Assembly: GCF_055900595.2 (NCBI RefSeq)
Contig: NZ_CM148325.1
DNA: 64,000 nt
Strand: one strand, 5' to 3'
A model generated the notes under the pieces. That model had not been told where the DNA came from and ran no database searches. It saw nothing but the letters and a program-made list of their open reading frames with translations. Of this stretch, positions 1,895-63,896 are shown one piece after another. Each line of letters opens with the position of its first letter. Within the stretch, counting starts at the first letter, position 1. Both the position numbers and the translations under genes were made by a program.

Positions 1895-4555
1895 TCATGA
1901 TTCCTCGCGCTGGGCAAGATTTAGCGTAAGCCCAACGATCCCCTCTTCGAGCTGGATATCAACGTTAAACCCGAGCTTGCGGGCCAGCGCCACCATGCCA
2001 CGATTGTTTGGCATCGTAATACCATTCAGACGTTGCAGTCCGTGATCTCGCGTATAGGTAATCAACTTTTCCATTAAGCGTCGACCTAAGCCTAACCCTT
2101 TGAGATCCGAGCGAACCAGCACGGCAAATTCGGCATCGATGTTATCAGGATCGGAGATCGCACGCGTGACGCCGAGGATCTCTTCCGTTTGATCAATACG
2201 TCGTACCGCTACAAACGCCATTTCCCGATCGTAGTCGATCTGCGTCATGTTGGCTAAATCTTCATGGGTAAATTCGTTGATCTCGCTAAAGTAGCGGTAA
2301 TAAAGATCTTCTTTGGTGACTCGCGAAATGAATTGCTGAAGCTGTGGCTCATCTTCCGGCAAAATCGGGCGGAACAAGCAACGTTCGCCGTTTTTCAATT
2401 CTACCCATTCTTCCAGCTGATGAGGATAAGGGCGCACAGCCAGGCGACTCTCGTTATCGCCTTCAAACGGAGCGATATCCAGCGTGACATCAAGCGCGGT
2501 AAATTCATTGCCGGAAGCCAGCAAAGGATGAATATCCAGCCTCTGAATCTCCGGACAATCAACAATCAAGTTAGAAACCTGCACCAGTAACTGGCTTAAT
2601 CCCGCCACATCCAGCGGGCGTAGCGCACTACGCGCACGAATCTTTTTACTTTTGATCCCCTGAATGACCAGATAACGTGCCAGGTTCATGTTCAGCGGCG
2701 GTAGTGCGACGACGGCTTGATCTTCAGGACGCCACTCCACACCGCCTTCGCCCAGCATGATCAACGGTCCGAAAACCGGATCGTGCTCAACCACTACTCG
2801 CAACTCCTGAGCGCCAGCACGGTTAGCCATACTTTGTACCAGCAGGCCGTGGATACTCGCCTGCGGCCAGGCCATTTTTACGCGATCGAAAATAGCATTT
2901 GCGGCTTGCTGGACTTCATTGGCTGTACGCAAGTAGAGCATGACGCCCTGAACTTCTGATTTATGTGGAATATCCGGCGAGCGTAATTTTAGTGCCACCG
3001 GATAACCAATCTGTTCGGCAATATGCACAGCCTCGGTGCTGTCAGTGGCAATCCAGGTGGGGAGTGTGTTCATGCCGTACGCTTGCAGGATAGGCTGAAC
3101 TTCATGGGTATCGAGCGACGTTGCCCCTTCGACAATGGCCTGTTGCAACAGAAGATGCGCTTCTGCGGTATTAGAGGTCAGATTGCTGGGCAACGCCGGC
3201 GTTTCGCGTAGTTGCTTCTGATTACGCCGGTACTCCACCATATGCATAAAAGCGGTGATGGTTCCTTCCGGGGTGCGGTAGGTCGGCAGCCCGGCTTCGC
3301 TGAATAAACGTCGTGCCTCTTGCGAGGAGTGCTCGCCGCACCAGTTCGTCAGCAGAGAAACATACTTGCTGCGGGGATGATGCTTTACCGCTTCAATTAA
3401 TGCATGTGCGCTTTCTGTTGCGGGGGCAGCGGCGCTGGGCGAATGAATAACCATCAGCGCATCAAAATCCTGACTGTGGAGCAGAATATCCAGCGTTTTA
3501 ATATAATGCTCACTACTGGCGTCATCACGAAGATCGAGCGGGTTAGAGATTGCCACATGTTCTGGCAGTGCATCGCGCAATTTTTGGCAGGTTTCTTCAC
3601 TGAGCGTAGCCAGCTTGCCATTGCGTGACCATAAGGCATCCAGCGCCAGTGCGGCAGGTGCTGCACCGTTGCTGATAATCATCAGCCGCTCTCCACGTAG
3701 CGGGCGCATATGGCTAAGGGTTTCGACTGCCGAAAACAGCTCGTGGGTATCCTGTACTCGCAACAAACCGGCGCGCTGAATAGCTGCATCCCAAGCAGGA
3801 TCCATTCCTGCCGTGGTGTTCAGTAGTCGTTGCGCCGCCGGGCTACGTCCACTTTTAATCACCAGAATCGGTTTATTACGTGAGGCGCTACGTGCAGCCG
3901 AAACAAAACGTCGCGCATCACTTAATTGTTCGAGGTAGAGCAGGATTGCACTGGTTTTGCTGTCGCGCGCCAGATAATCGAGCAATTCATCAACGTCGAT
4001 ATCCAGGCTGTCGCCGAGAGCAATAAAGTAGGAAAAGCCCATTTCCCGCTGTTGTGCCCAGTCGAGGATGGTATTGGAGACGGCGGCAGACTGCGAAATA
4101 AACGCCAGTTTGCCGCGTTTAATCGGTACCGGCGAAAAGCTGGCATTCAGGCCTTGCCAGGGGGCCAGTAATCCCAGACTGTTTGGCCCCAGCAGACGCA
4201 TGTTATGGCGCAGGGCGCAGGCACGGAGATCTTCGTGCTGCGATGCCGGGGCGGAAAGAATAATGCAGGTTTTACAGCCTTTCTCGCCGAGCTCTTCCAG
4301 AAGAGTAAGATTGCGGCTGGCATTGGTACATAAAACCGCAAGATCGGGTGTAAAGGGCAGGCTGGCAATATCCGGCCAGGCCAACACACCCAACACCGCT
4401 TTCCAGGCAGGCGTCACCGGGAGTACCGGCCCGTTAAATCCCCCCGCCAGCAGGTTACGCATCATCAGATAACCTGCGCGATTGGGTTTCATCGATGCGC
4501 CAATTACCGCAATCGATTTTGGTCGCAGTAATGCTTCCAGTCCTCGCTGACTCAT
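1895..4555 (-). CDS. patZ: Protein lysine acetyltransferase PatZ/Pka (acyl-CoA synthetase-like N-terminal region plus C-terminal GNAT domain)
   Basis: 886-aa ORF; CoA-binding/ATP-grasp-like N-terminal region and GNAT-like C-terminus; synteny with pssA. Confidence 0.9.
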   Translation of the reverse strand: MSQRGLEALLRPKSIAVIGASMKPNRAGYLMMRNLLAGGFNGPVLPVTPAWKAVLGVLAWPDIASLPFTPDLAVLCTNASRNLTLLEELGEKGCKTCIILSAPASQHEDLRACALRHNMRLLGPNSLGLLAPWQGLNASFSPVPIKRGKLAFISQSAAVSNTILDWAQQREMGFSYFIALGDSLDIDVDELLDYLARDSKTSAILLYLEQLSDARRFVSAARSASRNKPILVIKSGRSPAAQRLLNTTAGMDPAWDAAIQRAGLLRVQDTHELFSAVETLSHMRPLRGERLMIISNGAAPAALALDALWSRNGKLATLSEETCQKLRDALPEHVAISNPLDLRDDASSEHYIKTLDILLHSQDFDALMVIHSPSAAAPATESAHALIEAVKHHPRSKYVSLLTNWCGEHSSQEARRLFSEAGLPTYRTPEGTITAFMHMVEYRRNQKQLRETPALPSNLTSNTAEAHLLLQQAIVEGATSLDTHEVQPILQAYGMNTLPTWIATDSTEAVHIAEQIGYPVALKLRSPDIPHKSEVQGVMLYLRTANEVQQAANAIFDRVKMAWPQASIHGLLVQSMANRAGAQELRVVVEHDPVFGPLIMLGEGGVEWRPEDQAVVALPPLNMNLARYLVIQGIKSKKIRARSALRPLDVAGLSQLLVQVSNLIVDCPEIQRLDIHPLLASGNEFTALDVTLDIAPFEGDNESRLAVRPYPHQLEEWVELKNGERCLFRPILPEDEPQLQQFISRVTKEDLYYRYFSEINEFTHEDLANMTQIDYDREMAFVAVRRIDQTEEILGVTRAISDPDNIDAEFAVLVRSDLKGLGLGRRLMEKLITYTRDHGLQRLNGITMPNNRGMVALARKLGFNVDIQLEEGIVGLTLNLAQREES

Positions 4556-9085: not shown

Positions 9086-9187
9086 TTGTTATCTCCTCTG
9101 TTTTGGTAGACAGTACCCGACACGAAACATTTAAAAAAATGAATGTTTTCACATTCTAAATTCGATATTTTCGATAGGTTTGGAGTT

Positions 9188-10069
9188 ATGGATCTGCGCC
9201 GTTTTATTACGCTTAAAACCGTGGTGGAAGAGGGTTCCTTTTTGCGAGCTTCGCAAAAATTGTGTTGCACACAATCGACGGTGACTTTTCATATTCAGCA
9301 GCTTGAACAGGAGTTCTCAGTACAATTGTTTGAGAAAATTGGCCGACGGATGTGCCTCACTCGCGAAGGCAAAAAGTTGCTGCCGCACATCTATGAACTC
9401 ACCAGAGTGATGGATACGCTTCGTGAGGCTGCCAAAAAAGAGTCTGATCCGGACGGAGAACTGCGCGTTGTTTCAGGCGAAACGCTGCTCTCTTACCGAA
9501 TGCCGCAGGTGTTGCAGCGTTTTCGGCAACGTGCACCAAAAGTGCGTTTATCACTGCAGTCGCTGAACTGTTACGTGATCCGTGATGCTCTACTGAATGA
9601 TGAGGCCGATGTCGGTGTTTTTTATCGCGTAGGAAATGATGATGCTCTGAATCGACGAGAATTGGGTGAACAATCGCTGGTGCTGGTGGCTTCACCGCAA
9701 ATTGCAGATGTCGATTTTACTCAGCCTGGAAGACATAACGCCTGTAGCTTTATTATCAACGAACCACAATGTGTCTTCCGGCAGATATTTGAGAGCACGC
9801 TGCGCCAGCGGCGGATCACGGTGGAAAATACCATTGAGCTTATAAGCATTGAAAGCATCAAGCGTTGTGTCGCGGCGAATATCGGGGTCAGTTACCTGCC
9901 GCGCTTTGCAGTGGCAAATGAACTTGCGAGTGGCGAATTAATCGAATTGCCTTTTGGCGAACAGTCGCAGACCATTACGGCAATGTGCGCTCACCATGCC
10001 GGGAAAGCGGTTAGCCCGGCGATGCACACTTTTATTCAGTGTGTTGAAGAGTGTTTTTTGCCGGGATAA
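9188..10069 (+). CDS. yfiE: LysR-family transcriptional regulator YfiE
   Basis: 293 aa from Met at 9188; N-terminal LysR HTH (MDLRRFITLKTVVEEGSFLRASQKL). Confidence 0.85.
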   Translation: MDLRRFITLKTVVEEGSFLRASQKLCCTQSTVTFHIQQLEQEFSVQLFEKIGRRMCLTREGKKLLPHIYELTRVMDTLREAAKKESDPDGELRVVSGETLLSYRMPQVLQRFRQRAPKVRLSLQSLNCYVIRDALLNDEADVGVFYRVGNDDALNRRELGEQSLVLVASPQIADVDFTQPGRHNACSFIINEPQCVFRQIFESTLRQRRITVENTIELISIESIKRCVAANIGVSYLPRFAVANELASGELIELPFGEQSQTITAMCAHHAGKAVSPAMHTFIQCVEECFLPG

Positions 10070-10120
10070 AAATAATGCCGGGCTTAAACCCGGCACCTAA
10101 CTTGTCGACGAAGTGCGTTT

Positions 10121-10238
10121 TGTTCATGCCGGATGCGGCGTGAACGCCTTATCCGGCCTACAAGATCGTGCAAATTCAATATATTGCATGAGCCATGTAG
10201 GCCTGATAAGCGTAGAGCATCAGGCAGTTTTGCGTTTG
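10121..10238. repeat. REP/BIME (RIP-like) element: two inverted REP palindromes flanking an AT-rich spacer
   Basis: GCCGGATGCGGCGTGAACGCCTTATCCGGCCTACA ... GTAGGCCTGATAAGCGTAGAGCATCAGGCA; near-identical copy at 41201..41318. Confidence 0.85.
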
Positions 10239-10277
10239 CCAGCACTTTTAATTCCGGGCTTAAACCCGGAATTAAGA

Positions 10278-11612
10278 TCACTCTTCTGTCGTTTGCGGTG
10301 GCACGCCCGTTCCGCTTGGTTTACGGCGCTTACCAATATTTTTGGTGTCGCGATGGCGTTTTTTCACCCGCGGCTTCTCTTTCTCTTTAGCCTTTTTCTT
10401 CTCGGCGCGTTTTGCCAGTACTTTCTTCGATGGCTTGCCGGTCTGCTTCTCACTTGGCGCACGCGTTTTCGGGCGTAACTCATCAATTACGCGAGCTTTA
10501 ATTGGCTCTTCAATATAACGGCCTACTTTGCCCAGCAGCAGATGGTCATGAGCTTCAACCAGTGAAATCGCGGTTCCCTTACGACCAGCGCGAGCAGTAC
10601 GTCCGATACGGTGTAAATAAGTATCGCCACTGCGTGGCATATCGAAGTTAAAAACATGGCTGACATCCGGAATGTCGATACCGCGCGCGGCAACATCGGT
10701 GGCAACCAGTACGTTTACGCGACCTTCGGTCAGACGTTTAATCGCTTCGTTACGCTTACCTTGTACCATCTCGCCTTCGAGATAGCAGTTGTTGATGCCC
10801 GCTTCGCGCAGCCAGTTTGCCAGCTCATGCACACGCTCACGCTTACGCACAAATACGATTGAGCGAGTCGCTTCCGGCTGTTTTAACAGGTGCACCAGCA
10901 ACGCGGTTTTATGTTCCAGGTCATCGGCGCGGTAATACCACTGATGAATCTTTTTGCGCTCACGGGTGGATGGATTCGCAGAAACTTCCACCGGATCTTC
11001 AAGCAGACGCTCGGCAAAATCCTGAATGGCATCGCCTTCAAGCGTTGCCGAGAAGAGCAGGGTCTGTTTACGCCAGCGCGTTTCGCCTGCAATATGTTCG
11101 ATATCCTGAGCAAAACCCATATCCAGCATACGGTCTGCTTCGTCGAGGATCAGCGTTTCAACCGCGCGGCAATCGAAGTTCTCTTCTTTTATGTATTGCA
11201 GCAGACGTCCGGTCGTGGCAACCACGATATCCTGGTTTTCGCTGAATACTTCCGCGTGGTTCATATAGGCTACGCCGCCGGTGATGGTGGCGATATCCAG
11301 ATGCGTATGTTTCGCCAGTTCGCGGGCATGATCGGCCACCTGCATCGCCAGTTCGCGAGTCGGGGTGAGGATCAAAATACGCGGCGGACCGGATTTCTTA
11401 CGGGGGAAATCGAGCAGGTGCTGCAACGCTGGCAGCAGATACGCCGCCGTTTTACCGGTGCCTGTCGGCGCAGAACCGAGTACATCACGGCCATCGAGCG
11501 CAGGCGGAATGGCGGCAGCCTGAATGGCGGTCGGGCGAGTGAAACCTTTATCCTGGAGGGCTTCCAGCAGGCTTTCGTCGAGTTCAAGTTCGGAAAAAGT
11601 CGTTACAGTCAT
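10278..11612 (-). CDS. srmB: DEAD-box ATP-dependent RNA helicase SrmB
   Basis: 444 aa; Walker [13 protein letters not shown] box (LILDEADRM), [13 protein letters not shown] motifs; Lys-rich C-terminus. Confidence 0.95.
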
Positions 11613-15753: not shown

Positions 15754-16709
15754 TGAAGCAACTTTGGTTTGCCATGTCATTAGTGACAGGTAGCCTGTTA
15801 TTCTCTGCTAACGCCTCGGCCACTCCCGCGTCCGGGGCGTTATTACAGCAGATGAACCTGGCCAGTCAGTCACTGAATTACGAGCTGTCATTCATCAGCA
15901 TCAATAAACAGGGTGTTGAGTCTCTGCGTTATCGACATGCACGCCTCGATAACCGTCCTCTTGCACAATTGTTGCAAATGGATGGCCCGCGCCGGGAAGT
16001 GGTACAGCGCGGCAATGAAATCAGCTACTTTGAACCGGGCCTTGAACCGTTCACGCTTAATGGCGATTACATTGTTGATTCTCTGCCATCGCTCATCTAT
16101 ACCGATTTCAAACGCCTTTCTCCTTACTACGACTTTATCTCCGTGGGACGCACGCGTATTGCTGATCGTCTTTGCGAAGTCATTCGCGTGGTGGCCCGTG
16201 ATGGCACACGCTACAGCTACATCGTGTGGATGGACACCGAATCGAAATTACCGATGCGGGTTGATCTCCTTGATCGCGATGGTGAAACGCTGGAACAATT
16301 TCGCGTGATTGCTTTTAACGTTAATCAGGATATCAGCAGCAGTATGCAGACGCTGGCGAAAGCAAATCTGCCGCCGCTGCTTTCTGTTCCTGTAGGTGAA
16401 AAAGCTAAATTCAGCTGGACGCCAACCTGGTTGCCACAGGGGTTTAGTGAAGTTTCCAGCAGCCGACGTCCGTTACCGACGATGGACAACATGCCTATCG
16501 AATCACGTCTCTATTCCGACGGATTATTCAGCTTCTCGGTAAACGTTAACCGCGCTACGCCATCGAGCACCGATCAGATGTTGCGCACCGGACGCAGAAC
16601 CGTCAGTACAAGCGTACGTGATAACGCCGAAATCACCATTGTCGGCGAACTGCCGCCGCAAACGGCGAAACGCATTGCCGAGAATATTAAGTTCGGGGCA
16701 GCGCAATGA
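15753..16709 (+). CDS. rseB: SigmaE regulatory protein RseB (periplasmic)
   Basis: 318 aa with signal peptide; operon position. Confidence 0.95.
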   Translation: MKQLWFAMSLVTGSLLFSANASATPASGALLQQMNLASQSLNYELSFISINKQGVESLRYRHARLDNRPLAQLLQMDGPRREVVQRGNEISYFEPGLEPFTLNGDYIVDSLPSLIYTDFKRLSPYYDFISVGRTRIADRLCEVIRVVARDGTRYSYIVWMDTESKLPMRVDLLDRDGETLEQFRVIAFNVNQDISSSMQTLAKANLPPLLSVPVGEKAKFSWTPTWLPQGFSEVSSSRRPLPTMDNMPIESRLYSDGLFSFSVNVNRATPSSTDQMLRTGRRTVSTSVRDNAEITIVGELPPQTAKRIAENIKFGAAQ

Positions 16710-17185
16710 TCAAAGAGTGGGCTACGGTCGTCTCCTGGCAAAACGGGCAGGCGCTGGTCAGTTGTGATGTTAAAGCCTCATGCAGCAGCTGTGCTTCCCG
16801 TGTCGGTTGCGGTAGCCGCGTGCTGAATAAACTTGGCCCACAAACCACGCATACCATTGTCGTACCCTGTGATGAACCGTTAGTACCGGGGCAAAAAGTG
16901 GAATTAGGAATCACCGAAGGCAGCCTGCTTAGCTCCGCATTACTGGTTTATATGTCGCCGTTGGTGGGATTATTCCTCATCGCTTCGTTATTTCAGCTAC
17001 TCTTTGCTTCAGATCTTGCAGCATTATGCGGTGCGATTCTCGGCGGCGTTGGTGGATTCCTGATTGCACGCAGCTACTCGCGAAAGTTTGCTGCCCGGGC
17101 AGAATGGCAACCGATCATCTTAAGCGTGGCATTGCCGCCAGGCCTTGTGCGATTTGAAACATCTTCGGAAGACGCGAGCCAGTGA
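16706..17185 (+). CDS. rseC: SigmaE regulatory protein RseC
   Basis: 159 aa membrane protein; 4-bp overlap with rseB. Confidence 0.92.
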   Translation: MIKEWATVVSWQNGQALVSCDVKASCSSCASRVGCGSRVLNKLGPQTTHTIVVPCDEPLVPGQKVELGITEGSLLSSALLVYMSPLVGLFLIASLFQLLFASDLAALCGAILGGVGGFLIARSYSRKFAARAEWQPIILSVALPPGLVRFETSSEDASQ

Positions 17186-17382
17186 TTTCACTGGCTTTGT
17201 TGCATTTTGCATAACAAATGCGAGGACGTTTCCAGATACCACAATCCATACCGTATGAACATTTCCTCGCCTCAATGTTGTAGTGTAGAATGCGGCGTTT
17301 CTATTAATACAGACGTTAAGCTCAGAACAGCGACTTCTAAAAGCCTGGTTAACCGGGCATTAAGGCACAATAATCATACTTT

Positions 17383-19182
<1,800 letters not shown>

Positions 19183-19197
19183 CCCTTAGGAGTTGGC

Positions 19198-20172
19198 ATG
19201 GCGAATATGTTTGCCCTCATTCTGGTGATTGCCACACTGGTGACGGGCATTTTATGGTGCGTGGATAAATTCTTTTTCGCACCTAAGCGACGGGAACGTC
19301 AGGCAGCGGCTCAAGCGGCTGCTGGTGACTCACTGGATAAAGCAACGCTGAAAAAAGTTGCACCGAAGCCAGGTTGGCTGGAAACCGGGGCTTCTGTTTT
19401 TCCAGTGCTGGCTATTGTATTGATTGTGCGTTCGTTTATTTATGAACCGTTCCAGATCCCGTCAGGTTCGATGATGCCGACTCTGTTAATCGGTGACTTT
19501 ATTCTGGTAGAAAAGTTTGCTTACGGCATTAAAGATCCTATCTACCAGAAAACGCTGATCGAAACCGGTCATCCGAAGCGTGGCGATATCGTGGTCTTTA
19601 AATACCCGGAAGATCCAAAGCTTGATTACATCAAGCGTGCGGTGGGTTTACCGGGCGATAAAGTCACTTACGATCCGGTTTCAAAAGAGCTGACGATTCA
19701 GCCGGGATGCAGTTCCGGTCAGGCGTGTGAAAACGCGCTGCCGGTCACCTACTCAAACGTGGAACCGAGCGATTTCGTTCAGACCTTCTCGCGCCGTAAT
19801 GGTGGGGAAGCAACCAGCGGATTCTTTGAAGTGCCGAAAAACGAAACCAAAGAAAATGGAATTCGTCTTTCCGAGCGTAAAGAGACTCTGGGTGATGTGA
19901 CGCACCGTATTTTGACAGTGCCGATTGCGCAGGATCAGGTGGGGATGTATTACCAGCAGCCAGGGCAACAACTGGCAACCTGGATTGTTCCACCGGGCCA
20001 ATACTTCATGATGGGTGACAACCGTGACAACAGCGCGGACAGCCGTTACTGGGGCTTTGTGCCGGAAGCGAATCTGGTAGGTCGGGCAACGGCTATCTGG
20101 ATGAGTTTCGATAAGCAAGAAGGCGAATGGCCGACTGGTGTGCGCTTAAGTCGTATTGGCGGCATCCATTAA
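19198..20172 (+). CDS. lepB: Signal peptidase I (leader peptidase)
   Basis: 324 aa; catalytic Ser region GSMMPTL and Lys region; two N-terminal TM segments. Confidence 0.96.
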   Translation: MANMFALILVIATLVTGILWCVDKFFFAPKRRERQAAAQAAAGDSLDKATLKKVAPKPGWLETGASVFPVLAIVLIVRSFIYEPFQIPSGSMMPTLLIGDFILVEKFAYGIKDPIYQKTLIETGHPKRGDIVVFKYPEDPKLDYIKRAVGLPGDKVTYDPVSKELTIQPGCSSGQACENALPVTYSNVEPSDFVQTFSRRNGGEATSGFFEVPKNETKENGIRLSERKETLGDVTHRILTVPIAQDQVGMYYQQPGQQLATWIVPPGQYFMMGDNRDNSADSRYWGFVPEANLVGRATAIWMSFDKQEGEWPTGVRLSRIGGIH

Positions 20173-20185
20173 TAGCTTATCTTCG

Positions 20186-20220
20186 TTCACGTTGTCGCCG
20201 TTATGGCGACAACGTGAATT
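20186..20220 (+). terminator. Rho-independent terminator after lepB
   Basis: Hairpin TTCACGTTGTCGCC-gtta-TGGCGACAACGTGAA followed by T-rich tract. Confidence 0.7.
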
Positions 20221-20414
20221 ATTTATGAGATAAATCCCCCGTGGCTAACGACATCCCCCGTCGTTGTGTATAGAATATTCCCCCGAAGTTTAAGGTTGGC
20301 ACCTCCAGGTTGCCACGGCACACGAAACAGCGTTGGTCCCCATATACCGGTAAACTGAAACTGCAGCGAAGCAGTTAGCAGAGCCATGTATATCAGGTCT
20401 GTTTCGTGTGCTGA

Positions 20415-22027
<1,613 letters not shown>

Positions 22028-24010: not shown

Positions 24011-24033
24011 AATAATACCGTTCTCTTTAAAAA

Positions 24034-24070
24034 GTAAAACCCCCGAACTGGTAAGGAACGGGGGTTTTAC
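24034..24070. terminator. Rho-independent terminator after acpS
   Basis: Hairpin AAAACCCCCG-n-CGGGGGTTTT followed by T-rich tract. Confidence 0.75.
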
Positions 24071-24429
24071 TTTACAACTTTAATTTTGTGCAGCACACGA
24101 TTCCAACAAAAATGATTATGGATCAATTTAGTTATCCTGTACAAGCAACTTGCAATCTTTAGCATAAAAACTCGAGCCTTTACGAAGAAATCGATATTGA
24201 TGAAAAGATTAACGTGACCGCTTTTTGATAAGTACATTAGAATCGGCGTCGTTATTGGATATTTTGCTGTGTTCTACGCCATGCCACTGAATTCCCCCAT
24301 TGAAACGAGTGGTGTCGTCAAAGCTCTGGTGTGGAGTGCGGCACTCGATTCCAATAACTCGCACGTTCAGTTTTGGGGAGATGTAAGGGCTAATCTGAAC
24401 GGCTGCATTCCTTGTTTAAGGAAAAACGA

Positions 24430-33748: not shown

Positions 33749-33825
33749 GTCGTCAAGCTATTGGTTTTGCTGCCTGGCTGTGGCATTCACGCCGCATCCG
33801 GCATTAAACGCCAACCACTATCATA

Positions 33826-33851
33826 AGCTCCCAGCTCCGGGAGCTTTTTTT
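33826..33851 (+). terminator. Rho-independent terminator after purL
   Basis: Hairpin AGCTCCC-n-GGGAGCT followed by T7. Confidence 0.75.
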
Positions 33852-34082: not shown

Positions 34083-34268
34083 AGTGGCTCATTCACCGAC
34101 TTATGTCAGCCCCTTCGGGACGTGCTACATAAAATTCGAATGACGCACAACAAGGTGCCTGCCGTCCAACTTCTGATATCAGCTTAGCTATATCAACCCT
34201 CGGGCGAAACGTCGAGTTAGGCACCGCCTTATTCCATAACAAAGCCGGGTTATTCCCGGCTTTGTTGT
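34083..34268 (+). ncRNA. glmY: Small RNA GlmY (controls GlmZ/glmS via RapZ)
   Basis: Sequence recognised (AGUGGCUCAUUCACCGACUUAUGUCAGCCCCUUCGGGAC...); ends in terminator AAAGCCGGG-n-CCCGGCUUUGUUGU; lies between purL and glrK. Confidence 0.85.
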
Positions 34269-39636: not shown

Positions 39637-39914
39637 ATAAAAAATAGCCCTGCAATGTAAATGGTTCTTTGGTGTTTTTCAGAAAGAATGTGATGAAGTG
39701 AAAAATTTGCATCACAAACCTGAAAAGAAATCCGTTTACGGTTGCAAGCTCTTTATTCTCCAAAGCCTTGCGCAGCCTGAAGGTAATCGTTTGCGTAAAT
39801 TCCTTTGTCAAGACCTGTTATCGCACAATGATTCGGTTATACTGTTCGCCGTTGTCCAACAGGACCGCCTATAAAGGCCGAAAATTTTATTGTTAGCTGA
39901 GTCAGGAGATGCGG

Positions 39915-41168
39915 ATGTTAAAGCGTGAAATGAACATTGCCGATTATGATGCCGAACTGTGGCAGGCTATGGAGCAGGAAAAAGTACGTCAGGAAGAGCA
40001 CATCGAACTGATCGCCTCCGAAAACTACACCAGCCCGCGCGTAATGCAGGCGCAGGGGTCTCAGCTGACCAACAAATATGCTGAAGGTTATCCGGGCAAA
40101 CGCTACTACGGCGGTTGCGAGTATGTTGATATCGTTGAACAACTGGCGATCGATCGCGCGAAAGAACTGTTCGGCGCTGACTACGCTAACGTCCAGCCGC
40201 ACTCCGGCTCCCAGGCGAACTTTGCGGTGTACACCGCGCTGCTGGAACCCGGCGACACCGTTCTGGGTATGAACCTGGCGCATGGCGGTCACCTGACTCA
40301 CGGTTCTCCGGTTAACTTCTCCGGTAAACTGTACAACATCGTTCCTTACGGTATCGATGCTACCGGTCATATCGACTACGCCGATCTGGAAAAACAAGCC
40401 AAAGAACACAAGCCGAAAATGATCATCGGTGGCTTCTCTGCATATTCCGGCGTGGTTGACTGGGCGAAAATGCGTGAAATCGCTGACAGCATCGGTGCTT
40501 ACCTGTTCGTTGATATGGCGCACGTTGCGGGACTGGTCGCTGCTGGCGTCTACCCGAACCCGGTTCCTCATGCTCACGTAGTGACTACCACCACTCACAA
40601 AACCCTGGCGGGTCCGCGCGGCGGCCTGATCCTGGCGAAAGGCGGTAGCGAAGAACTGTACAAAAAACTGAACTCTGCCGTTTTCCCTGGTGGTCAGGGC
40701 GGCCCGTTGATGCACGTAATCGCTGGTAAAGCGGTTGCTCTGAAAGAAGCGATGGAACCTGAGTTCAAAACTTACCAACAGCAGGTCGCGAAAAACGCTA
40801 AAGCGATGGTAGAAGTATTCCTGGAGCGCGGCTACAAAGTGGTTTCCGGCGGTACTGATAACCACCTGTTCCTGGTTGATCTGGTTGATAAAAACCTGAC
40901 CGGTAAAGAAGCTGACGCCGCTCTGGGCCGTGCTAACATCACCGTCAACAAAAACAGCGTACCGAACGATCCGAAGAGCCCGTTTGTAACCTCCGGTATT
41001 CGCGTGGGTACTCCGGCGATTACACGTCGTGGCTTTAAAGAAGCCGAAGCGAAAGAACTGGCTGGCTGGATGTGTGACGTGCTGGACAGCATCAATGATG
41101 AAGCCGTTATCGAGCGCATCAAAGGTAAAGTTCTCGACATCTGCGCACGTTACCCGGTTTACGCATAA
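39915..41168 (+). CDS. glyA: Serine hydroxymethyltransferase
   Basis: 417 aa; PLP-lysine motif [14 protein letters not shown]. Confidence 0.97.
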
Positions 41169-41200
41169 GCGAAACGGTGATTTGCTGACAATGTGCTCGT

Positions 41201-41318
41201 TGTTCATGCCGGATGCGGCGTGAACGCCTTATCCGGCCTACAAATTATTGCAAATTCAAGATATTGCAATCTCCGTGTAGGCCTGATAAGCGTAGCGCAT
41301 CAGGCAATTTTTCGTTTG
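41201..41318. repeat. REP/BIME (RIP-like) element, near-identical copy of the one at 10121..10238
   Basis: Same two inverted REP palindromes around an AT-rich spacer. Confidence 0.85.
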
Positions 41319-41365
41319 TGATCATCAAGGCTTCCTTAGGGAAGCCTTGTTACGTTATCGCGCCA

Positions 41366-42559
41366 TCAAATCTGTCGTAACTGCGCCTCAACATACAAAT
41401 AGCCAATCCCCAGCACCTGCTGTGCGCGGCTTAATTGCCCAAAGCCAATTTGCGTCGATTTCACGCTCGGTCCTTCGTCACGGTCGAACGGGTTAAATCC
41501 TGTCTGGCGAATAATGGAATTAAGCCAGTTCTCACCAAAGGCGCAGCTGCGACCATACAGCCAAATCTGATTAATATTGAGGATGTTGAGGAAGTTATAC
41601 AGACTCAAACCAATGGCGTTGGCACTGCGGTCAACCCAGCTGGTGATCCACGGTTCTCCACTCTGCCAGGCAGCGATTAATTGTGCGGTTGTCAATTTTT
41701 CAGGATCAAGCTGAGTATTCACCGGTTGTGATTTTAGCCATACTCGCGCCTGTTTTTTTAATGCGCTTAACGAGGCGACGGTTTCCAGGCAGCCATAATG
41801 TCCGCAGTCGCAGACGACACCATCCGGATTAACGATGGTGTGACCAATCTGTCCGCTACCATACAAACTGCCGCGATAAATTTGCTCGTTAATCACGAAC
41901 GACGAGCCAATACCGTAATCAACGTTGATCACGCAGAAATCCCGTCCTTGCGAATTATTTTGCCATTTCTCCGCCAGCGCCAGCATCACGCAGTCATTAT
42001 CGACCATCACCCGAATGCCCAGCTTCTCTTCCAGCAGATACTTCACCTCAACCGGCGTTGTCCACGGCGCTTGCGGCATGGTTTGCGACACGCCAGTCAC
42101 TGGATCAACCTGACCGTGGATTGCCAGCGCCAGGTTGATAGTACGGTCCGGCCACAGTTTACGATGACGATGCCAGCATTTTTCGATTTCGGACAACAGA
42201 GCCTGCGGTGTCGGTGCATCAATCTGAAAATACTCAAATTCGCCTTTCGGACTTAAACAGGCATTAGCGACCTGACACTCAATGCTGGTGGGCGTCACGT
42301 TCAGGCACAGCGTCCAGTCACCTTCCGGCGCGATCAGCCATGTACCGCTACTGTGCCCGCGCGTCTGGCTTTCATCGTCGATATTCACCACCCGTTTTTC
42401 GCTTTCCAGCTCCTGCAAAATATTACTGACTGCCGGAATCGAAATTTGCGCCAGCCGGGCCAGCGTTGATTTATTGGCGCGCTTTTGCCGGTACAGCAGT
42501 TCCAGAATCACGCATTTGTTATGGTGGCGAATCTGTTGATTATTAATGCAGGCTCTCAT
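41366..42559 (-). CDS. yphH: ROK-family (NagC/Mlc-like) transcriptional regulator YphH
   Basis: 397 aa; N-terminal HTH, ROK sugar-kinase-like fold with Cys/His cluster (CDCGHYGCLE). Confidence 0.85.
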   Translation of the reverse strand: MRACINNQQIRHHNKCVILELLYRQKRANKSTLARLAQISIPAVSNILQELESEKRVVNIDDESQTRGHSSGTWLIAPEGDWTLCLNVTPTSIECQVANACLSPKGEFEYFQIDAPTPQALLSEIEKCWHRHRKLWPDRTINLALAIHGQVDPVTGVSQTMPQAPWTTPVEVKYLLEEKLGIRVMVDNDCVMLALAEKWQNNSQGRDFCVINVDYGIGSSFVINEQIYRGSLYGSGQIGHTIVNPDGVVCDCGHYGCLETVASLSALKKQARVWLKSQPVNTQLDPEKLTTAQLIAAWQSGEPWITSWVDRSANAIGLSLYNFLNILNINQIWLYGRSCAFGENWLNSIIRQTGFNPFDRDEGPSVKSTQIGFGQLSRAQQVLGIGYLYVEAQLRQI

Positions 42560-42676
42560 CTTCACTAAACCTTGTTTAGTTAATTGCGTGATTATTCCGC
42601 GAAAACATTGCCAGATTGTTCAATACACTGCCACAAATCTTTTAATTCAGTATGTCTTGTTAATATTGAGGGCACC

Positions 42677-50733: not shown

Positions 50734-51606
50734 ATGACCATCTATACCTTATCTCACGGGCCGCTAAAGCTGGACGTTTCTGACCGGGGCGGCGTCATCG
50801 AAGGCTTCTGGCGTGACGCGACGCCGCTCTTACGTCCCGGTAAAAAAAGCGGTGTGGCAACCGATGCCTCTTGTTTTCCGCTGGTGCCGTTTGCAAACCG
50901 GGTGAGCGGCAACCATTTTGTCTGGCAGGGGCGTGAGTATCAACTGCAACCGAATATTGAATGGGATGCGCACTATCTGCACGGCGACGGCTGGCTGGGC
51001 GAGTGGCAATGTGTCTCGCGCAGCGATGAAAGCTTGTGTCTGGTATATGAACATCGCACAGGTATTTATCAGTATCGGGTAAGTCAGGCGTTTCATTTAA
51101 CGGCAGATACGCTGACGGTGACGCTCTCTGTCACCAACCAAGGGACAGAGACGCTGCCATTTGGTACCGGCTGGCATCCTTATTTTCCGTTGTCACCACA
51201 AACGCGGATTCAGGCGCAGGCGAGCGGTTACTGGCTGGAGCGGGAGCAGTGGCTGGCGGGTGAGTTTTGCGAGCAGCTACCGCAGGCGCTGGATTTCAAC
51301 CAGTTCGCGCCGTTGCCGCACCAGTGGGTGAACAATGGCTTTGCCGGATGGAATGGTCAGGCCCGCATCGAGCAGCCGCAGGAGGGTTACGCTATCACTA
51401 TGGAAACGATGCCGCCCGCGCCGTGCTATTTCATCTTTGTCTCCGACCCCGCGTTTGATAAAGGGTACGCGTTTGATTTCTTCTGTCTGGAGCCGATGAG
51501 TCATGCGCCGGATGACCATCATCGCCCGGAAGGGGGTGATCTCATTGCGCTTGCGCCGGGGGAATCAACAACCTCAGAGATGTCGTTGCGGGTGGAGTTG
51601 CTGTAA
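50734..51606 (+). CDS. yphB: Aldose 1-epimerase-family protein YphB
   Basis: 290 aa; operon position after yphC. Confidence 0.8.
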   Translation: MTIYTLSHGPLKLDVSDRGGVIEGFWRDATPLLRPGKKSGVATDASCFPLVPFANRVSGNHFVWQGREYQLQPNIEWDAHYLHGDGWLGEWQCVSRSDESLCLVYEHRTGIYQYRVSQAFHLTADTLTVTLSVTNQGTETLPFGTGWHPYFPLSPQTRIQAQASGYWLEREQWLAGEFCEQLPQALDFNQFAPLPHQWVNNGFAGWNGQARIEQPQEGYAITMETMPPAPCYFIFVSDPAFDKGYAFDFFCLEPMSHAPDDHHRPEGGDLIALAPGESTTSEMSLRVELL

Positions 51607-51616
51607 TTTATAAAAT

Positions 51617-51705
51617 GCCTGATGCGACGCTTGCCGCGTCTTATCAGGCCTACAATCGGTGTTGGAACGGTAGGCCGGATCTGGCGTTCACGCCGCATCC
51701 GGCAT
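51617..51705. repeat. REP/BIME element (two inverted REP palindromes) between yphB and yphA
   Basis: GCCTGATGCGACGCTTGCCGCGTCTTATCAGGCCTACA ... GTAGGCCGGATCTGGCGTTCACGCCGCATCCGGCA. Confidence 0.85.
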
Positions 51706-51710
51706 CTTTC

Positions 51711-63655: not shown

Positions 63656-63896
63656 TTTAACCGTCCTGTTTCGTGTTGCATCTGCGTTGACTGTACATAC
63701 TCACTCCGGTCACTTACTTATGTAAGCTCCCGGAGATTCGTAAGTTTGTCAACTTGCTGAAACCCGAAACAGTTAGGTTAAAGATAACAAGATATTAGAA
63801 TCAGGCCGGGGCGTCTCGCGCTCCGTAAACACGGTCGTACATCCAGCCGGTAGCCTGGTTCCTTGCATTGAGTGATGTACGGAGTTTATAGAGCAA

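Follow-up and report, generated by a model that had tools for sequence, protein, structure and literature searches.

Two copies of one repeat lie in convergent spacers

The window, by which we mean the whole 64-kb stretch of DNA that was analysed, contains two convergent gene pairs, yfiE(+)/srmB(-) and glyA(+)/yphH(-), each with one repeat element in its spacer. The gene names, as given in the original prediction, agree with the K-12 and RefSeq annotation. We refer to the element between yfiE and srmB as copy A and to that between glyA and yphH as copy B; the features of the two spacers are as follows, with the basis for each in parentheses.

9143-10069, + strand: yfiE CDS, LysR-family regulator, left neighbour of copy A (ORF list; RefSeq annotation of identical and related records)
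10074-10097, - strand: hairpin copy 1, core CCGGGCTTAAACCCGG, then tail ATTTTTATCC; likely the srmB terminator (exact 16-mer, terminator scan, outgroups)
10098-10247, + strand: BIME-1 copy A, whole unit of ~150 nt (copy alignments, 36-site consensus, fold)
10127-10161, + strand: Y iREP of copy A, 35 nt, ending in CTAC (sequence)
10162-10196, + strand: L linker of copy A, 35 nt, AT-rich (sequence)
10162-10204, + strand: match to Rfam RF02751, ES036/CssrF, in the L linker of copy A (48.1 bits, gathering score 37.6)
10174-10186, + strand: IHF-like site ATTCAATATATTG in the linker of copy A (consensus match)
10197-10226, + strand: Z1 REP of copy A, 30 nt, starting with GTAG (sequence)
10197-10207, - strand: IS621 insertion position ATCAGGCCTAC (alleles of strains UTAK-6 and UMB200201_11)
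10248-10275, no strand assigned: hairpin copy 2, TTAATTCCGGGcttaaaCCCGGAATTAA, with an 11-bp stem, 2 nt from the srmB stop (sequence, 16-mer)
10278-11612, - strand: srmB CDS, DEAD-box RNA helicase, right neighbour of copy A (ORF list, annotation)
39909-41168, + strand: glyA CDS, left neighbour of copy B (ORF list, annotation)
41182-41325, + strand: BIME-1 copy B with its flanking motifs (copy alignment)
41207-41241, + strand: Y iREP of copy B, 35 nt, ending in CTAC (sequence)
41242-41276, + strand: L linker of copy B, 35 nt, AT-rich (sequence)
41254-41266, + strand: IHF-like site ATTCAAGATATTG in the linker of copy B (consensus match)
41277-41306, + strand: Z1 REP of copy B, 30 nt, starting with GTAG (sequence)
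41326-41349, no strand assigned: lone local hairpin CAAGGCTTCCttagGGAAGCCTTG touching the right end of copy B (sequence; strain comparison)
41366-42565, - strand: yphH CDS, ROK family, right neighbour of copy B (ORF list, annotation)

Positions 10121-10238 and 41201-41318 are equal at 105 of 118 bases in an ungapped alignment (89%); this lies above the 80% cut-off that the original prediction had set, but its description of the pair as near-identical is too strong. The self-alignment that it called for recovers the pair as the longest direct repeat of the window, 137 nt at 85% identity (10102-10238 against 41182-41318), and the similarity between the copies extends across 10102-10240. The repeat itself is real, but the unit is wider than the 118 bp first proposed; the alignment of 36 sites described below puts it at about 10098-10247. 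A 137-nt match at 85% identity, together with a 16-mer that recurs 176 bp apart, cannot be chance.

Both copies are BIME-1 elements

BIME-1 elements are defined by one y and one z1 REP in inverted orientation with a long conserved L linker, often with an IHF site (PMC3333891, PMC1187871). Both copies carry inverted Y and Z1 units in which CTAC and GTAG face the linker, which bears out the earlier description of an AT-rich core between two inverted REP palindromes. A longer Z2 unit lies at 51615-51653 of the same window, and the Z arm differs from it in being the short variant; we take the Z arms of both copies to be Z1 and not Z2 on the basis of the published consensus. The 35-nt linker is conserved over 36 sites and matches the IHF consensus, WATCAANNNNTTR, with one mismatch in each copy. 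Binding of IHF to the linker has been reported for the BIME-1 family (PMC3333891, PMC2817692). The suggestion that the elements are gyrase sites needs correction: it is for BIME-2 and atypical BIMEs that gyrase has been reported to bind strongly, while BIME-1 is the IHF class (PMC2817692).

The predicted folds of both elements, as two REP hairpins or as a single long hairpin of the REPIN type, are strong on both strands, with z-scores of -5.1 to -7.2 (-5.1 for the copy A unit). The REP arms of both copies give partial matches to Rfam naRNA4, an RNA derived from REP325, with the Y arm aligning to the Y half of that model. An inverted REP doublet, a long-hairpin fold and a population of similar copies, here at 36 distinct sites, are the marks of a REPIN, and both copies are extragenic, lie 3' of transcription units and vary in their presence among strains. 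The arms align to Y and Z1 REPs and the linker is related to those of other copies, so that the identity holds on both counts. As a known REP/RIP-type enterobacterial repeat, then, the pair was correctly recognised. BIME-1, RIP and RIB elements have in common with the two window copies the Y and Z1 units inverted around an L linker with an IHF site, a length of about 140 bp, an extragenic position at the 3' ends of transcription units, and presence or absence among isolates (PMC3333891, PMC1187871); we found no difference for the two copies. They are ordinary members of an already known element class.

The copies belong to a dispersed family

Where a genome lacks the yfiE-srmB copy, copy A finds its best match in the BIME-1 between fepA and entD, at ~90% identity; matches in such genomes begin at query base 63, corresponding to 10102 in the window. 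We sampled further sites by scanning metagenome contigs for a Y end followed by 25-45 nt and a Z1 start. This yielded 109 usable sites in 36 flank clusters, or at least 36 distinct BIME-1 sites. Unit boundaries were taken from a four-copy alignment that includes fepA-entD and fdnI-yddM and from the 36-site alignment, in which the consensus unit reads TTCAGATTGCTGACAAAGTGCGCTTTGTTCAT, Y, L, Z1 and AATTTTGCGTTTGTCATCAGTCTCA, in that order. Each flanking motif is an imperfect inverted repeat of the other, with AGATTGnTGACAAA at both ends; in copy A, one lies at the left and one at the right edge of the unit, outside Y and Z1. Copies A and B are independent members of this dispersed family and not a special pair.

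The srmB terminator is predicted to be doubled around copy A

Copy A is bracketed by a direct repeat of the 16-mer CCGGGCTTAAACCCGG, at 10078-10093 and 10254-10269, and the 16-mer has no further occurrence in the 64 kb. The second repeated hairpin noted earlier at this site is thus a true direct repeat, but it is not another dispersed repeat; we rejected that assignment since the window has this hairpin at no other site and its orthologue in other genera is the single srmB terminator. In the terminator scan, hairpin copy 1 on the - strand (10097 to 10074) is the sole intrinsic-terminator-like site in the yfiE-srmB spacer, and there is no T-tract beside hairpin copy 2 on either strand.

Empty alleles (EC958, O157:H7 and the GTDB E. 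coli representative) have one hairpin, AATGCCGGGCTTAAACCCGGCATT, in a 32-bp spacer, and on the srmB strand a T-tract comes next. Outside E. coli, Escherichia albertii, Citrobacter werkmanii, C. youngae and Salmonella arizonae likewise have a single hairpin and T-tract right after the srmB stop, which argues that the single hairpin is the ancestral state. On this comparison, the flanking hairpin is the predicted local intrinsic terminator of srmB, doubled around the insertion. The filled alleles are 176 bp longer, and the extra sequence is the BIME-1 unit together with one more copy of the stem-loop. Filled alleles are also present in cryptic-clade Escherichia, and in Escherichia sp. E1V33 the locus reads hairpin-element-hairpin-element-hairpin with a period of 176 bp.

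On insertion, copy A would have separated the srmB terminator stem from its T-tract and become bracketed by two copies of the stem-loop. An insertion at this point would place the element inside the srmB 3' UTR, with a T-less hairpin on one side of it and the real terminator on the other; we infer that the srmB transcript passes the T-less hairpin and the BIME-1 before reaching the terminator.

Local hairpins flank BIME-1 at other sites

At each of the 36 sites we locally aligned the left flank with the right flank, using as a control the flanks of different sites paired with each other (mean score 6.6, 99th percentile 10, maximum 16). Flank similarity lies over the control 99th percentile at 10 sites, and nine of the 36 are clear, with a locus-specific GC-rich stem-loop as a direct repeat 2-5 nt beyond both unit ends. 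We also counted stable hairpins, defined as those of -9 kcal/mol or lower, against control windows shifted outward by 80 nt. Such a hairpin adjoins at least one unit end at 27/36 sites, compared to 17/36 control windows, and both ends at nine sites, compared to none of the controls; hairpins adjoining the elements differ from those of the control windows with p = 0.002 (Mann-Whitney).

One candidate, metagenome cluster 4 (L103), was left out of the nine because its flanking repeats do not resemble a duplicated local terminator. It is a Y-L-Z1 doublet without the usual flanking motifs, bracketed by hairpins of the CCCTCTCC..GGAGAGGG type, which we take to resemble box C-type dispersed repeats.

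Comparison of alleles at individual loci gives the same footprint. The BIME-1 between fdnI and yddM is bracketed by two copies of another hairpin, AAATGGCGC..GCGCCATTT; alleles with zero, one and two copies of the element exist at this locus, K-12 having two and the empty allele a single hairpin. At tsx-yajD, pitA-uspB and ysgA-metE, comparison with E. coli genomes likewise shows exactly one hairpin in the empty allele and hairpin-BIME-1-hairpin in the filled one. The filled query for ysgA-metE is covered to at least 80% by no E. coli genome, all ten of the ten full-span matches listed have the short allele, and the filled form is seen only in one metagenomic relative; the filled state at this locus is therefore read as derived. 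In all, filled/empty pairs with the hairpin footprint were verified at five loci, where the duplication spans 19-31 bp and is in every case equal to the local stem-loop. Tandem arrays of the form hairpin-BIME-1-hairpin-BIME-1-hairpin, with a period of 176-178 bp, lie in E1V33 (3821-4230 of the extracted locus, L015) and at fdnI-yddM of K-12 W3110 (230-670 of L096).

Copy B is a one-sided case. The hairpin at its right end, CAAGGCTTCCttagGGAAGCCTTG, is kept in glyA-yphH alleles without the element and is not duplicated, and the shorter allele has a 14-bp replacement. Filled and empty alleles thus differ by replacement, about 148 bp against 14 bp, with no flanking duplication, and on the sequences compared the presumed insertion event is less clean than at yfiE-srmB. 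The tsx-yajD allele of E. coli 2 HS-C (L222) has a deletion of the right hairpin copy and of the end of the right flanking motif; loss of one hairpin copy, as in this allele, may explain one-sided sites.

In E. coli SJC33 (L098), an IS200/IS605-family tnpA element follows directly after the T-tract of the single fdnI terminator at fdnI-yddM. It sits just ahead of the ATTG at which BIME-1 starts in other strains, which suggests that the position after the fdnI terminator is a favoured entry point for IS200-class transposases.

Strain distribution and insertion sequences

The original prediction asked whether either copy is absent in related strains, and for each copy the E. coli genomes without it make up roughly half of the total or more. 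Of the 5,426 complete E. coli genomes, 2,524 have a filled yfiE-srmB site and 2,459 its empty junction, and 1,932 are filled at glyA-yphH. Most other E. coli genomes are ~134 bp shorter at glyA-yphH, their number being derived from the filled count and the spacer comparison and not from a direct count. Both copies are present in K-12, and neither is found in ST131/EC958 or O157:H7. Presence and absence of BIME-1 among isolates is already documented (PMC1187871).

Some of the remaining genomes at yfiE-srmB have an insertion sequence within the element. This agrees with the proposal that such repeats are IS insertion targets: in strain CB6886, the Y REP loop holds IS1397, accompanied by a 4-bp duplication, GAAC, and in strains UTAK-6 and UMB200201_11, IS621 lies at the GTAG end of the Z1 REP, at GT-AG-GCCTGAT (= ATCAGGC-CT-AC). 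The IS621 insertion falls on the AG (CT) core of GTAGGCCTGAT, and the natural target sequence of IS621 is present in copy A. IS621 is the model bridge-RNA recombinase. REPs as targets of IS1397 and IS621 are documented (PMC1525189).

The window itself comes from a rare and divergent lineage. At 17600-21600, 9700-10700 and 40760-41760 it matches E. coli Z0117EC0005 (NZ_CP098223.1), isolated from a dog, with 100% identity. The housekeeping block around lepA reaches at least 99% identity in only 15 of 5,425 genomes, with ~96% to the rest, and the yfiE-srmB region has only ~93% identity to most E. coli strains. The lineage may belong to a cryptic clade of Escherichia and have been filed under E. 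coli.

Other features of the window

A BIME-2-type doublet at 51615-51706, just beyond the stop codon (51604-51606) of a 290-aa ORF (50734-51606), consists of a Z2 unit, TGCCTGATGCGACGCTTGCCGCGTCTTATCAGGCCTAC, a short linker of 16 nt and a Y REP; the IS621 target ATCAGGCCTAC also occurs inside it, at 51643. A lone degenerate Y-type REP at 33766-33807, ~78% complementary to the BIME-1 Y arms of copies A and B, lies ~280 bp upstream of the GlmY sRNA match and is followed by a separate hairpin and T-tract at 33829-33851. The remaining Rfam matches are ordinary and expected, and confirm a K-12-like gene order:

16670-17501: AsrC antisense RNA of rseC
20285-20499: rncO leader
24031-24107: ohsC
34083-34230: GlmY
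63785-63894: iscRS stability element

Origin and spread of the elements

Copies A and B are very probably BIME-1 (RIP/RIB, REPIN) insertions that arose independently, each in a convergent-gene spacer and directly against a local GC-rich stem-loop of terminator type. The inserting unit would be a non-autonomous repeat of roughly 145-150 nt, made up of an inverted Y, a 35-nt L, a Z1 and the two flanking motifs, and presumably mobilised by the REP-associated Y1 transposase TnpA-REP (RAYT), whose gene does not lie in the window. Once in place, the linker would be expected, from the family, to bind IHF and be bent by it, and the elements could serve as a landing pad for REP-specific insertion sequences. 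Unequal recombination between duplicated hairpins would either restore the empty site or build tandem arrays.

By analogy with other REPs, the stem-loops in the 3' UTRs may hinder exonucleases that act from the 3' end and reduce read-through from one convergent gene into the other. Plamann and Stauffer reportedly found that the glyA 3' REP stabilises glyA mRNA; our literature search on glyA, REP and mRNA stability returned nothing. One genome-wide study saw no general effect of terminal REPs on mRNA half-life; it places ~60% of REPs between convergent genes and describes the effects of REPs as context-dependent (bioRxiv 10.64898/2026.03.23.713779).

The elements, their polymorphism and their targeting by insertion sequences are already known. 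The question of how REPs and BIMEs spread dates from the 1980s and, to our knowledge, their transposition has never been observed. A biochemical study from 2012 stated the mechanism of BIME spread to be unknown (PMC3333891). We propose, tentatively and well short of conviction, that BIME-1 enters at the foot of a GC-rich stem-loop that is already in place, in most cases an intrinsic terminator, and that the whole stem-loop is duplicated in the process, so that the length of the duplication (19-31 bp) is set by DNA structure and not by a fixed stagger of the enzyme. As a speculative route, either the transposase or a junction-resolving nuclease could break both strands at the equivalent hairpin foot, for instance on a cruciform that has been extruded, after which the overhangs would be filled in. 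Unequal exchange between the hairpin copies would, in a structure-set duplication, account for the alleles with zero, one and two copies. Breakage at the hairpin foot would differ from the single-strand 'peel and paste' route assumed for Y1 transposases. Because Y1 transposases of the IS200/IS605 type leave no flanking direct repeats (PMC3333891), the duplication of the hairpin is not predicted by the enzyme presumed to mobilise the element.

The polymorphism could instead run in the other direction, with the terminator tandemly duplicated first, or the filled state old, and the empty alleles formed by deletion between the hairpin copies. Direct repeats of 19-31 bp lying ~150 bp apart suit slippage or recombination; zero-, one- and two-copy alleles exist, one tsx-yajD allele has lost a hairpin copy, and filled alleles occur in cryptic-clade Escherichia. 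However, species beyond E. coli and the cryptic clades have one hairpin at yfiE-srmB, and ysgA-metE is short in the E. coli matches listed and filled only in one metagenomic relative. Moreover, the duplication stops at the foot of the stem, within 2-5 nt of the element ends, at nine unrelated loci, a boundary pattern that independent earlier duplications of terminators would not yield. We consider this history unlikely; secondary deletion certainly contributes to the polymorphism but leaves the origin of the second hairpin unexplained.

That the core is a dedicated sRNA gene (ES036/CssrF) with incidental REP arms is very improbable, even though the RF02751 match at 10162-10204 exceeds the gathering score and CssrF was seen by northern blot in Shigella (PMC3071730). 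The 43-nt model amounts to the BIME-1 linker and the first bases of Z1, the score of copy B is 28.7 bits, under the gathering score of 37.6, and the sequence is missing from about half of E. coli genomes. We found no promoter-like site in the yfiE-srmB or the glyA-yphH spacer. The northern band that defines CssrF came from the dacB-yhbZ spacer of Shigella (PMC3071730), and since this is a different locus, CssrF most plausibly represents a transcript that runs through another BIME-1 copy; we rejected the ES036 match as a true sRNA gene here, the model being in effect the BIME-1 linker.

It is scarcely credible that copies A and B are a specific pair, made by local duplication or gene conversion between spacers 31 kb apart: they form the longest direct repeat of the window and tend to be present or absent together in the strains sampled (both in K-12, neither in ST131/EC958 or O157:H7), but the fepA-entD copy is as close to copy A (~90%) as copy B is (85-89%), the similarity ends at the boundaries of the family unit, the unit occurs at dozens of other sites, and co-occurrence can follow strain phylogeny.

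Comparison with known mobile elements

BIME-1 insertion with duplication of the local stem-loop, if it occurs as we propose, differs in part from each system to which we compared it. REPINs mobilised by RAYTs share the inverted REP doublet, the fold into one long hairpin, the many near-identical copies and the insertion polymorphism; the difference is that IS200/IS605-type transposition leaves no flanking repeats, whereas here a 19-31-bp stem-loop is duplicated. Classical MITEs such as ERIC/IRU and Correia elements are likewise small and non-coding, with imperfect terminal inverted repeats (AGATTGnTGACAAA in BIME-1) and flanking target repeats. The target duplication of a MITE has a fixed short length set by its transposase (PMC3184786); that of BIME-1 is not of fixed length but ranges over 19-31 bp and tracks the local stem-loop.

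Some other mobile elements home to terminator stem-loops. Group IIC introns insert at intrinsic-terminator hairpins, and they and the IS200 of SJC33 share with BIME-1 an insertion at the foot of a terminator hairpin; unlike BIME-1, neither duplicates the hairpin. In the literature that we examined, we found neither the hairpin-length duplication, which older work may cover, nor tandem arrays of BIME-1 plus hairpin. BIME-1 has been described as single-copy (PMC3333891), in contrast to the tandem element-plus-hairpin arrays in E1V33 (yfiE-srmB) and K-12 (fdnI-yddM).

Implications

Both elements would alter the 3' UTRs of srmB and glyA, and would do so in some strains only; locally, they also matter as sites that attract IS1397 and IS621. 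For the family, the recurrent footprint, visible between strains and equal to one local hairpin, leads to a testable prediction about landing sites, junctions and enzymes, and a duplication of hairpin length would constrain how BIME-1 transposes. BIME-1 insertions may in this way systematically remodel terminators, so that a hairpin copy without a T-tract precedes the real terminator.
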